Shown: positions 18,201 to 24,200 of the stretch, in pieces
Layout: each line of letters starts with the position of its first letter
Position numbering within the stretch: position 1 is the first letter of the stretch
Origin: Tubiluchus corallicola
Lineage: Eukaryota > Animalia > Priapulida
Direction: 5' to 3'
NCBI GenBank assembly: GCA_030141605.1
Contig: JAQGDQ010002368.1
Coordinates: forward strand, 124,001 to 188,000
DNA length: 64,000 nt
Made by a program: the position numbers and the translations under genes
The notes under the pieces: model-generated
Told to the model about the DNA's origin: nothing
Seen by the model: the letters and a program-made list of their open reading frames with translations, nothing else
The model's database searches: none

Positions 18201-21200
18201 TGTGTGGCCATCGATCATAATATTTATTTCAGCATGATAATATATCGTAAATAATATATATAATGTATAATATATAATCGTATATAATATATATATATAT
18301 ATATTAGGCGTCGCTTAATTGACTCACTTCGGGCCGACATGTTTTGACCCAATTAACCGGATGAACCTATTAACCGATAGTATTACTAGCATAGAAGTAT
18401 GAGTCATCAGCTTACTATGCACTACAAAGGTTTTAATGAATCATAGAAACGAAGTAATGCCTAAATTCCTTTGTACAGTTAAAATTAGAAAAAAATATTT
18501 TAAAATATTATTTTATAGTGAACTAGCAATAAATTATAAAGTGTAGTTTTCTGAATCACACAAGTCTATTTATTTGCAAAAATTAGAGCATTGCAAAAAT
18601 TACTTTCAAAGTCAGCTGCCTCATTTTCTCGCTAAGCAGTTGGCTCACAAAGTTCTCGTAATTATAAAAATGTTGAAAATCTGTTGCTGTGTGATGCACG
18701 TAAAACATTTAGCACTTGGCATGCTTGAGCTGCAGTTGGTGGTGCCCTCGTGTTGGTAACAAGGTTAATTGCAGTGGACGAACGGGTAACAGATTCAAAG
18801 CAAAACCGCTACGCTAGCGTATTAGCGCATGATAAACGTTCCTGTTTACAAACAAAACGGCACATAACATGATTGTTTCTACATACATAGTGCACAAAAG
18901 GTAAGTAAAGATGACATGAAAGTAAGAAAGGTTCTTTGGGCACATACAAATGTAAGTATGTGAAGGAAAAATATTGAGTCAATTATGTGGAGTTATTTGA
19001 GTCAATTACTGATAGTTTTTATGTATATTTGAATAGAAGTGGCCCGTTCCAGGCGTTTTTGAGACTATTAAGCGGCGCCTACTGTATATATATATTAAAA
19101 GAAACAGTTAACTGAGTAGTTAATTGTAAACTAAAGCTAATCATTAAGTTCAGTCCTGCTTAGTGAGATGCAAAAAGTATGTTATTAGTGCCGTGACAAC
19201 TACTAATTTTTAACAATTTTTTGCGAGTACGTAACTTGTATTGTTTGTTGGTGTGTGAGCAAGTGATTACTACAGCCTGTGTGCATAATTTTTGTACTTG
19301 AAAGACTTCTTAATTACAAACTCTATTATATGGGTATTGCTTTAACTTTAAGTTTGCATGAATTTTTGATGATTTACATTTGAGCTGTGTATTATTGAGT
19401 TATATTTTAATTGTTTATCTATGTCTGACTAAAACTGTATCTCTTTCTTTAAGTGATCTGTTTGTAGTCTATTTGTCTTCCATCCTGGGTGTAATTTACT
19501 GAACCTTGAAAGCTTTTAGAAAGAAAAACATGTACCTGGCAAGTCACAAAGGTTTTGGTGTAGACTTTTCTGTTCTAAAAGGTTTCCATGTACGTGTGCG
19601 TTCATTTTAGTTTCTGGTTTACTGAATTGCGTTTCGTTTTTATTGTTTTTTTTGTGTGTTTTTAAATACACTAATCGCATATTTGTAGATCATCAACCTC
19701 TTTGTGGCCGTCATCATGGATAATTTCGATTACTTAACACGTGATTGGGCAATCCTTGGTCCTCACCACCTGGACGAATTTATCCGTCAGTGGTCTGAGT
19801 ATGATCCGGACGCAAAGTGAGTCATAATGCTTTCATTGTGCAATGTAATACAACATAACAATCGCTATTTGTAGATCATCAACTTGTTTGTGGCGGTCAT
19901 CATGGATAATTTCGATTACCTGACTCGCGATTGGTCGATTCTTGGTCCGCATCATTTGGATGAATTTGTAAGGCTGTGGTCAGAGTATGACCCGGACGCC
20001 AAGTGAGTAGAAGCACGCACGTGTGTGTGTGCGTGTTGTCACATGCGGTTTGCTGTGTGTTTTAGCATCGGTCGTTCATTTGTGATTTGTCCATTTATTA
20101 CATTAATTTTTTACTTATTTGGCAAGGGTGAATTCACTACTTTTTGACATGGTTTTGCTTTTTTATTTTACACAAAAAATACTAAATTTTATGTTCGTAT
20201 TGCCTGTACTGCAGCTGTGTATTTACACTAACAACTTCTTGAAAGCAAATTTTTGACAATACACTTACATATAGCTGTGATTAAATGCAAGCTGCCCTGT
20301 CTAAACTTCTGTTAACAGTCATCGTGGAGCAAGCATAGTCTGCAAGTTTAGCACTGCGGTTAGTGTGCTAAAATGACGCGGCACGCTACGATTGATTATT
20401 TATGCGAAGTTACTTCTTCATAAATGGAACCTTATCAGCCTGCAATATTATATCAGATTCGTTGCTCCAATGATTAAAACAACCAACAAATATTTCAGAA
20501 AGTGCAAGTGTTTTTCTTTCAAGATCTTGTCTGATTAGGTAAATACACTATAATGCAAATAAGTTAATTTGAATAAAAAAAGCTACAGGAACAGGCACAC
20601 GGTAAAAATCGTGGTCTTGCTTCGATTTCGACTGGGGTAATTTGCTTGAATCGATTGTAATTTTTGGATTTTGTTTGGTTTTCACATTAATTTTTGGTGC
20701 AAGACTTGGTGGTGGAAATTAGCATGTATTTAACAACATCATTTAACAATTTTTTACTAATGGATTTGATTATGTAAAGATTGTTTGTCGATTAAAAAAT
20801 TTTAATTGAATATACACAATTACACGTTTAAGTTCAGTAGTTTGTATCACTGAGGTTAGCTAGAGCTACTTCCACAATTAGTTGAATTGTTTTACTTATA
20901 TTGATAAAATGTGTATATATACTGAATAATGTGTTTGTTTTAGAGTATCGAAACATGACAATAAATGTGAGGAACATTTGCTTATGTTACCAGATCTTGT
21001 TTCTTCTTTTAGGATGCAGGTTTACAAAGTCTAATGTGATTTAACACAATGAGTGTTTACTGGTTTCTTGTGAGAGTTTCGTTTAGGTACATTCAGACCT
21101 TCGATGCAAATGAATGCATCTGTAATTAAGAAAAAAAACAGGAAATTTTTTAAATAATTTAGCAGAAGTGTTCTGTGTATTTCTGGTTTTAGCATGTATA

Positions 21201-24200
21201 GTGTTAGGTTTAGTATTCTTGGTTATCTTAGAATTTTTTAAAGTACACACTTTTTTGAATTTTGCAGAGGCAGGATAAAGCATTTGGATGTTGTAGCTCT
21301 GCTGAGAAAGATTCAGCCTCCGCTTGGCTTCGGGAAGCTATGCCCGCATCGTGTCGCATGCAAGGTGTGCCATTTTTAAACACGAAATACAGTTTGTAGA
21401 AAAACAATTTAGAACGGGTTAATCTGATGTCATTAGTATGACAAAGCAAATTTGATTTTCATAGACCATAGGCCAAAATATGTAAGACCATCATAGTTTA
21501 GTGTTTAAACATAAATGACACTGCAATTTCAGTCAGTTTCACATATTAGCAAGCCACAGTGTGAAATAAGTTTGTGTGTTTTTATTGTCACTGCTTTCAG
21601 TTTGAACATAGAAACTCTGAACACTACTTTTTGTCTTTGAATTGTAGAGATTGGTTTCCATGAACATGCCTCTAAACAGTGATGGTACAGTTATGTTTAA
21701 TGCGACGCTGTTTGCTTTGGTGCGAACTTCTCTGCGAATATTTACAGATCGTGAGTAGTACATGTTTTACTAATTTGATTTTAGGCTTCATTAAACGCAT
21801 GAAGAATATTGGTCACGAGTTGTTTGTGGAACATTTAATTGAATCAAATACGTGCCATCTCAATGGGAGTTAACATCTTTCAATCTGCTTGATGGTGAGA
21901 TTTTCATCACTGGGCATCATTATTAATATTTTCTACATACTCCATGCACTGAAACTTTGTAAATAGATGTCATAATCGTCTATACCTGTGCTGTGTCATA
22001 GATCGTTCTTCTTTACACACAAATACATAATTATCACTGTTTTGCATCATGTGTTTTATTTGTAAATGAGATCTTTAATTATCAGTGAGATTTACTTGCG
22101 CAAGATATAGTTGATCGAAATAGTTGATTGATTTCTTTCACGCTTTAAGTAATAAAATTGGATATGTGTGCGATTAAAACTATTCCTGTGTTTGCAAACC
22201 AAAACCGTCCATAAGTCAGCATAGTTAAAATTACGTAGAATGCACCAAAACTTTGGTCAAATGAATAACATTTATATTTCTTTTTGTTTCAAGCTAATCA
22301 AACTCCGGACGACCTGAATGAGGGTCTGCGCTATGTCATCAAAAAGGTTTTCAAATTTAAAAATCAGAAGAAGCTGGACCAGATTGTGCCTCCACCTGGT
22401 GGTAAGATGTGCACATTTTTTGTATATGTATGCTAAAAAGGGTACTTTACTAAAAATTTAGTAAAATGAGTTTGCTATATGCATTTAAATTTGTTTGTTT
22501 TCTTTAAAATTGTTCAGGAAACGTGAGTATAATAAATAATGCATTAAAAGTTGAAAATATGGTTTACAGTAACAGCTTTTTAGTGTTCCTGAATTTCCTG
22601 GAAAAAAAATTATCCCAAGAAAATGCGGCTAGTATTCGGAATTGCCTTTCTAAGGTCTTCACCATTACTATCTACTTCAGGAACTAAGTCAATACTTGTT
22701 AAAGTGATGTATGCTGGTTTAATAAAATGTTGTTAGCAGACATAGTTAGTGGTTTTTTCTCATTGTTTCTTCCCACTAGTTACATCTATCAGTTGTAAAA
22801 ACTCGACAGCATCTAAAATATGCATTTTGAAGGTATGTCATAGCTTGCAGAAATTTGGTCATTTGTACATTTACATTAACATCACCGAGTCACATTTTCT
22901 TATGCAGTTCGCTACATAAATCTCGGATGCTTCTTTGCCGTATATTTGCTGCAAGATTGGGTGCGACTTCACCTGCGGCGGAGAAAGGCACGGCTGGAAG
23001 CTGCCATACTCGATGGAGACCTGGATGTCCTGGCAAAGTATCCGGCCTATGCTCCACTCTTTTCGGTAGGTTTTGCATAACGAACCCACTCATTAACCCT
23101 CGTTTGCTTTTATTTAGTTGAGAGCGAGGTTACAGTGGGGATGTTCTATGCCACGTTTCTCATCCAGGATTACTTTCGTCGCTTCAAGAAGCGCAAGGAG
23201 AATAGGCTAAAGCAGGGCCTAACTGGCGCACCGGTCAGCGCGGGAGTTGCTCTTCAAGTGAGTTTCTGGCAAAAGATAGTTAGCCTGTAGACTACTAGGT
23301 GGCATGCTTGTTTATCTATGCTGTCAGGCTCCTTTCAATGCTTTCTAATGGCAGTAGATTTACTGAACCCTTAGCCAACATTTTAGCCAGATCAGCAATT
23401 TTAGCTTTTTTGTTTTGCTTTGTTTGCATTCTTTCTTCATTTCCTTTCTTGTGTGAAGCTGACTTCTTGCAACTTTAAGCACAGAATTTCTGCTCACCTT
23501 TTTCTCTGTGATTCTGTGATGGTAGCGTTGCGATTTTCCATTATTATGACTGTTGCTACGATGCTAGCAAAGTATCGTAAAAACTTATATAATAATGACT
23601 ATTGTGAAATGGCTTAGTGGTAACATCTGTTTTGATATACGTATTTTTACTGGCACAATATACATGTAGAGACGTACATTTAAAATAGTTAGATTTTATA
23701 AAACATATGTTGAAGTAATTGCAAGCTAACATGAAACATGCATTTAAAACAGTTGCAAACTAACCTTTACACACACGAAACCAATTAGAATCTAACTAGT
23801 CTTCAATTTTCAGAGAAAATTTTGCCCAGTTATTTTGCGTAAACTGTGACTTTGGTTAGATTGGCTACAAATTGGAACACGCATTATTGATCCGCAATCA
23901 CTCATACACACGACAGTATAGTTCATAAACAGTGACGAGCTGAACTGACAATGTTGAAAAAGCTACTTGCAGAGCTTCAAAGCCACATCAAGCATAACCT
24001 AATACAGCTCAGAATGGTTGTACTGTCTTTTTTAAAAAAAATCATATTTTTCGGCTTTGTGTGCCATCAACTGATATAAATTACCTGATAGTTATCCCTT
24101 TCAAAATATTCATCATGTATTTGTGCTGGTACCTGGTCACTACATTTCGTGGTAAAAACAATGTGTTTTTTGCTATTGTTATTGCATTTTGCTGTAGTCT

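Follow-up and report, generated by a model that had tools for sequence, protein, structure and literature searches.

We describe here a 64,000-nucleotide (nt) stretch of the priapulid Tubiluchus corallicola (assembly GCA_030141605.1, contig JAQGDQ010002368.1, positions 124,001 to 188,000 of the forward strand), called the window below, which holds a voltage-gated calcium channel gene with two apparently duplicated exons in the part of the tail that responds to calmodulin. Most of this Cav1 alpha1 gene occupies the + strand of the first 31 kb, running from the domain I pore loop, where the window starts (exons 5' of that loop lie outside), to a stop codon near 31399. The 30 exons through 25232 were joined into a stop-free partial model of 1417 residues. 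Their translations carry a glutamate in the pore loop of each of the four repeats, and exon-by-exon Pfam searches matched the GPHH, Ca_chan_IQ and CAC1F_C families in the tail. In a tree of 28 Cav1 sequences and 833 columns, built from Cav1 sequences only and with no Cav2 outgroup, the gene fell outside vertebrates and outside the insect-containing cluster. We assign it as the Cav1 (L-type) alpha1 gene of a non-vertebrate, non-arthropod animal.

All exons named below lie on the + strand. The domain IV pore loop and the start of segment IVS6 are encoded by a constitutive exon at 17161..17338, followed by the first pair, A1 (19689..19816) and A2 (19875..20002), which covers the end of IVS6, the linker and the first EF helix and is interrupted by a 58-nt spacer A (19817..19874). 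Three constitutive exons come next: the second EF exon of 97 nt, present once and containing the LGF motif (21268..21364), an exon with the equivalent of S1570, the second reported CaMKII serine, together with the TLF motif and the T1604 equivalent (21648..21750), and a diverged pre-IQ exon with Phe at the W1593 equivalent (22294..22401). The second pair consists of B1 (22908..23065), a 158-nt, open-frame, diverged copy of the IQ exon in which LQDW replaces IQDY, a 52-nt spacer B (23066..23117) and B2 (23118..23257), the canonical IQ exon of 140 nt, with a Ca_chan_IQ score of 30.8 bits. The constitutive exon at 24529..24639, where CAC1F_C starts, is in frame after either B exon, so that the distal tail would stay in both forms.

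A profile of 20 homologues was scanned against 1807 six-frame fragments of positions 1-33000, and only two profile stretches, those of pairs A and B, were matched twice. Vertebrate Cav1 genes carry their exon pairs at IS6, IIIS2 and IVS3. These pairs, exon 8/8a among them, lie elsewhere than A and B, and the corresponding exons of the present gene (1658-1761, 8649-8815 and 15106-15321) gave no second copy in that scan, as the preliminary description of this stretch had stated. The vertebrate IIIS2 and IVS3 modules are small separate exons; here both segments sit within larger exons of 167 and 216 nt, and the small modules are therefore not present as separate exons. The coordinates, frame incompatibility and 52-58 nt spacers given earlier for the two pairs were all confirmed. 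Their placement in the EF, pre-IQ and IQ region needs narrowing, as B is the IQ exon and A reaches the first EF helix, but no pre-IQ exon is duplicated.

The pre-IQ exon scores 34 bits, where 61 of 74 pre-IQ matches reach at least 42. B2 has a Met where all 221 homologous segments have Lys. With the diverged pre-IQ exon, the Phe for W1593 and this Met, the calmodulin module of the lineage seems to be fast-evolving.

A1 and A2 are each 128 nt long, with AG and GT at their borders, and are identical at 105 of 128 nt and at 39 of 42 residues. By the Nei-Gojobori method they differ by 18 synonymous and 5 non-synonymous changes (proportions pS 0.70 and pN 0.05; Fisher p 1e-11), which corresponds to a synonymous divergence (dS) of about 2 and a non-synonymous one (dN) of about 0.05. 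With pN this low beside so high a pS, pair A must have been duplicated long ago, and both of its copies are constrained as coding sequence. A2 is the canonical copy, identical at 42 of 42 residues to the Anopheles Cav1 protein (P0111). The upstream copy had been called non-canonical in both pairs; this applies strongly to B1, which shares 10 of 31 residues with B2, but to A1 only mildly.

That haplotypes or paralogue pieces were set in tandem by the assembly is very improbable. The organism looks polymorphic, which could favour such an error; however, the A copies have diverged at 70% of their synonymous sites, much more than alleles would, and both junctions reappear in a sequencing run (X1), which covers introns and is therefore DNA. 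No splice junction was seen in it, within a compared stretch that did not include the junction from 17338. One X1 contig spans B1, the spacer and B2 fully with two synonymous differences, and others run from A1 through the spacer to 21 nt into A2; the three exonic differences of X1 are all synonymous. Its cover leaves out some parts, the A1 alanine codon among them, and X1 may be related to the assembly source. Another run, X2, matched a short repeat only.

The three residues that distinguish A1 from A2 comprise one unique, one rare and one common variant. Position 21 of the exon is Ser in 290 of 290 homologous segments (29 distinct; the segment pattern left out three of 240 proteins, one garbled and two without the region), and the Ala of A1 (codon GCA, 19749..19751; TCG for Ser in A2, 19935-19937) is unique. 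At position 34 the Gln of A1 recurs in 3 of the 290 segments, and at position 32, where A1 has Ile, both Ile and Val occur in 89 each. The matches to the A1 and IVS3-S4 exon queries included no close relative, and among them no protein had alanine at this serine. Proteins P0121-P0123, considered as possible exon pairs on account of a repeated or extra score, were rejected, containing whole-region repeats or nothing relevant inside.

The alanine, which the preliminary description passed over, sits in the TRDWSIL motif, where the serine, a reported CaMKII/PKA site, is S1487 of mouse and S1535 of human Cav1.2. Its offset of -137 from the IQ isoleucine equates it with rabbit S1517, and its distance of 58 residues to the second site fits the S1512/S1570 pair; rabbit 1517 and 1512 are treated as the same serine in PMC10094977. 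According to PMC13605837, S1487A in the mouse motif blunts the adrenergic rise in current, while CaMKII-dependent mode 2 gating via S1517 and lowered facilitation in S1512A are reviewed in PMC4060732. The hot spots of the EF region for calcium-dependent inactivation (CDI) map between LGF and TLF (PMC4035741). All three A1/A2 differences lie upstream of that stretch, and the S1570 and T1604 equivalents belong to a constitutive exon outside the pair. Since the differences avoid the CDI stretch and the unique change takes away a serine reported as a kinase site, pair A probably toggles a phospho-site rather than switching inactivation. The earlier proposal that both pairs act on calcium inactivation can accordingly be kept for pair B, not for pair A. 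A1 resembles the engineered Cav1.2 mutants S1517A, S1512A and S1487A, in which the TRDWSIL serine is likewise replaced by alanine; unlike them, it is a natural, selected exon variant.

The two A exons could instead encode near-equivalent proteins, with the pair kept for RNA reasons such as level control or redundancy and only pair B altering the channel. The 39 identical residues, the common Ile and the Gln seen elsewhere agree with this, as do the ambiguous score given to S1535A and the viability of S1487A mice (PMC13605837). However, a dN of 0.05 over a dS of 2 needs a reason for keeping the second copy, and the serine is otherwise invariant, so that we regard such equivalence as decidedly unlikely.

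In pair B, B1 has the marks of a coding exon. Seven of the ten residues that it shares with B2 are encoded by different codons. The protein alignment score of 62 was reached by none of 20000 shuffles and by none of 186 intron frames (best 39), and the DNA aligns over 15 nt only. The codon log-odds of B1 is 0.50, compared with 0.51-0.58 for A1, A2 and B2; six of 388 stop-free intron windows equal it, all in one insert rich in guanine and cytosine (GC), and the best elsewhere is 0.07. This coding signature runs exactly from the acceptor to the donor at 23065. An IQ slice profile gave 11 bits for B1 against 61 for B2, and at an expect value (E) of up to 10 the only matches of B1 among 177635 PDB sequences were two Cav1.2 IQ peptides (E 1.3). 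Fungal protein clusters were rejected as relatives because of their low recognition.

B1, or even A1, might be a duplicate that has died, or a poison exon whose inclusion only leads transcripts to decay. The donor of B1 is weak and reading through it meets a stop four codons on; 31 same-phase pseudo-exons occur by chance in these introns, and the searches described below gave no homologue of B1. On the other hand, stop-free runs of 52 codons are scarce in the introns (146 of 5350 windows), the GC content of B1 is 53% against 32% in the introns, and its synonymous codon use is exon-like by +15 bits. B1 also combines IQ homology with the right phase, and its coding signal extends to the very end at 23065. 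Use as a terminal exon was rejected too, as neither AATAAA nor ATTAAA occurs in 23066-24528, a weak test given that the true 3' end also has no hexamer within 700 nt. A dead or poison exon is in our opinion distinctly improbable.

An IQ element consists of a hydrophobic-Q core with basic residues at +5 and +10. B1 has this pattern as well as aromatic N-lobe anchors: it retains the IQ glutamine, both IQ arginines and a net charge of +5, and has F, F and Y in place of F1618, Y1619 and F1622, the three N-lobe anchors (PMC10094977). Changed are the key Ile, which is Leu, the next Tyr and Phe, which are Trp and Val, and TFL, which is VYL. Within the IQ region, C-lobe CDI has two hot spots, TFL and IQD (PMC4035741), and in Cav1.3 replacement of the Ile by Met alone lowered CDI from 0.57 to 0.23 (PMC12340395). 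Ile-Gln is present in 221 of 221 homologous IQ segments, in loci that were found by an IQ pattern and are hence biased to canonical forms. We infer that B1 still binds calmodulin and leaves the full distal tail in place, with CDI altered and probably weaker; pair B is thus likely to retune calmodulin feedback.

In both pairs two homologous exons lie side by side in the same phase, and their splice ends are intact, apart from the weak donor of B1. All four exon lengths are 2 mod 3 and the phases match; the four single-choice combinations are all open, which supports the earlier count of up to four EF and IQ combinations, and double inclusion, double skipping and a retained spacer (spacer B brings an in-frame stop) each give a stop. 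The spacers are the shortest two of 31 introns, the next being 116 nt. Predicted branch-point adenosines lie about 42 nt (A) and 31 nt (B) from the upstream donors, in both pairs below the donor-to-branch steric threshold of about 50 nt (PMC7969005). The spacers would be too short for joint use of donor and branch point, and one-or-other splicing is therefore expected. A comparable distance of less than about 50 nt operates in alpha-tropomyosin 2/3, alpha-actinin and OGDH 4a/4b (PMC7969005), but in those genes the branch points are distant and the introns longer, whereas here the entire intron measures 52-58 nt. The arrangement of a distant branch point with a long pyrimidine tract was absent from both pairs, the spacers being short throughout, and incompatibility of U12 and U2 splice sites was rejected as the cause of exclusion, all four donors being U2-type.

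The A1 and A2 acceptors share about 15 nt with nearly identical ends, and the two exons resemble each other more closely over their 5' third than over what follows (p 0.008). An intronic element at 20338..20367 (+ strand) could, by predicted base pairing, cover the A1 acceptor together with its branch point (-26.4 kcal/mol, with 0 of 150 intron shuffles as strong) or, more weakly, those of A2 (-17.4 kcal/mol; the joint score was reached by 1 of 150 shuffles). One of 23 constitutive acceptors equals this pairing, eight acceptor-intron combinations were tried and the element can fold on itself, so that we present it as no more than a lead for the choice within pair A. Hairpin formation around the four acceptors or the spacers was unremarkable (z -1.1 to +1.3), and docking-type pairing at the B1 and B2 acceptors (-13.5 to -18.1) remained within background.

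For comparison we used Cav1 loci of other animals, the best 80 of 271 confirmed matches in metagenome contigs, many of them transcripts or fused exons. An intron precedes the IQ exon in 20 of these loci, and 11 have a separate A exon. The 97-nt second EF exon is doubled in eight loci, five of them distinct (L029/L030/L031, L032, L034/L035, L043 and L047), with spacers of 80-140 nt, no shorter than the neighbouring introns; in L029-L031 the first copy is strongly diverged. In L061 (1944-2406) a fused pre-IQ exon is doubled (208 and 205 nt, same phase) around a 50-nt spacer, with the upstream copy more diverged. As nine loci double neighbouring exons of the module, duplication there recurs, one exon at a time. 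The single pair of L061 also indicates that a short spacer is to be expected from tandem duplication and steric exclusion for any single pair.

The preliminary description went further and proposed one coupled switch, A+A versus B+B, for instance in muscle versus neuron: a single splicing programme would pick A1+B1 or A2+B2 by tissue and produce a low-feedback or a standard channel. In its favour, both pairs have the same layout with the odd copy upstream in each, and the IQ and EF regions cooperate in C-lobe CDI (PMC4035741). The three vertebrate Cav1 pairs may act in concert, as suggested in PMC9741552, and in the tail of Cav1.3 editing correlates with splicing (PMC12340395). However, no cis link between A and B, by base pairing or shared flank motifs, was found: the longest complement of 8 nt was equalled or exceeded in 265 of 265 control pairs, and the best duplex, -25.4, lay inside the range of 25 controls (-23.2 to -30.8). 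The flanks of A are rich in UG, with TGTG/GTGT counts of 8 and 14 that exceed all 17 controls (the 14 fall in 20003..20202, + strand, just 3' of A2, where none of 17 constitutive exons has more than 7 on its downstream side); the counts around B are 0 and 3. The pairing site at 20338-20367 involves pair A only, two odd copies upstream are a one-in-four event, and other invertebrates duplicate one exon of the module at a time. Coupling therefore has no support, though a shared trans factor may link the pairs, and the choices at A and B are probably regulated separately. We consider the coupled switch the least unlikely of the alternatives, and unlikely all the same.

Tandem mutually exclusive exons in the EF region of a Cav alpha1 tail are familiar from exons 37a/37b (EFa/EFb) of Cav2.1, Cav2.2 and Cav2.3, which pair A resembles (PMC12149502, PMC9741552). 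In the present gene, which is a Cav1, the second EF exon is single and pair A is the exon preceding it, while the doubled second EF exon of the eight Cav1 loci is convergent with Cav2 37a/37b. It is the 97-nt exon at 21268-21364 that we take to correspond to Cav2 37a/37b. For Cav1.3, alternative splicing of the IQ domain (PMC3710344) and A-to-I editing of IQDY (PMC12340395) are post-transcriptional changes of the IQ region that weaken CDI, as pair B may do. Editing recodes one or two residues, whereas pair B swaps the whole second IQ exon in frame and keeps the distal tail. The Cav1.3 splicing described by Shen in 2006 reportedly removes the IQ element by truncation. According to PMC9741552, Cav genes are enriched for tandem exon substitutions; human and fly together show ten that arose independently, no two at the same exon, among them three in CACNA1C/D, two in Ca-alpha1D, three in cacophony and one in Ca-alpha1T. 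Human and fly Cav genes have, like this gene, gained tandem pairs repeatedly at different exons (PMC9741552). The Drosophila Ca-alpha1D pairs may overlap with the A or B exons, and the alternative exons of Aplysia Cav2 are reported at other places (PMC10657410). Literature searches, made largely outside subscription journals, brought up no report of a doubled IQ exon or of a naturally occurring exon with alanine in place of this serine.

Taken together, we favour, at slightly better than an even chance, two old tandem duplications with likely one-or-other splicing, of which A would toggle a kinase serine and B calmodulin control via the IQ helix. Exclusion would be imposed by the shortness of the spacers, in which a donor and a branch point could not both be used, with frameshift and decay as a back-up. 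A1 channels would lose part of the up-regulation by CaMKII and PKA. B1 channels would keep calmodulin binding and the whole distal tail and show altered, probably weaker CDI. With the choices probably regulated separately, as many as four isoforms could arise, A2+B2 being the default one.

Several observations weigh against this interpretation. The use of A1 and B1 in transcripts is predicted from genomic sequence, no junction read having shown either, and the branch points are motif predictions. With 24 of 42 exon A positions invariant, one of three changes at an invariant site is not improbable by itself; the Ala codon is known from one assembly alone, the kinase role of this serine in invertebrates would be carried over from mammals, and even in mammals its role is disputed and the mechanism called contentious (PMC13605837). 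The selection estimate for B1 versus B2 is poor (pS 0.73, pN 0.45, p 0.047). The B1 donor scores 1.7 bits, weaker than 26 of 27 constitutive donors, with an in-frame cryptic donor after 22960 scoring 6.2. B1 matched no Pfam family at E of up to 1, Ca_chan_IQ included, no homologue at E of up to 10 among 21 candidate proteins of at most 2000 residues, and nothing at an E limit of 0.001 in a set of 1.84 billion representatives, in which one cluster takes in all Cav1 isoforms. A second IQ or A exon was present in none of the 80 Cav1 loci, three of the 11 with a separate A exon holding less than 330 nt upstream.

Other features of the gene and window were recorded in passing. The IIS6 intron (5054-5316) looks U12-type, with donor GTATTCTTT and branch TTCCTTAAC near the AG, and is the sole such intron of 31; minor introns are known in channel genes. 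A GC-AG intron donor lies at 4283, after the IIS1-S4 exon. A GC-rich insert (about 58%) at 9840-10210, within an intron, is probably a mobile-element remnant, two copies of a repeat of about 400 nt lie in different introns (15492-15900 and 26410-26810), and a tandem array of units of about 41 nt follows just downstream of the gene (32020-33000). Two near-identical elements resembling long interspersed nuclear elements (LINEs), 48001-53372 (+) and 53531-58014 (-), face each other across an assembly gap; by eye, both hold a first open reading frame (ORF1) with zinc knuckles and an ORF2 with endonuclease and reverse transcriptase (RT), and a further RT fragment lies at 43507-45597. Exons of neighbouring genes gave weak Pfam matches, pentraxin-like at 36577-36870 (-) and PAN-domain-like at 62353-62652 (+), and one at 40376-40954 (-), presumably tubulin-glutamylase-like, had no Pfam match.

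The pairs are real and probably functional, and their main value lies in two natural variants, not in coupling. Few parts of L-type channels are as conserved as the IQ helix and the IVS6-EF linker. A second IQ exon retained in nature would provide an evolved variant with which to find the residues that set calmodulin feedback, and the retention of a phospho-null exon has a bearing on whether the serine S1517/S1512/S1487 is a real and old control point, a matter contested in cardiac physiology. In a bolder version, which we think quite unlikely, a single programme would produce an A1+B1 channel that sheds both the kinase facilitation site and normal calmodulin inactivation, the selected Ser-to-Ala exon would be natural evidence that phosphorylating the disputed IVS6-linker serine is an ancient control, and the module would be a recurrent duplication target across invertebrates. 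If this is true, an A1+B1 switch would achieve through the choice of exons what in vertebrates is left to separate genes and RNA editing. Together with the other loci, every exon of the module has been doubled in one lineage or another. This suggests that animals with few Cav1 genes have been selected repeatedly for feedback that can be tuned.

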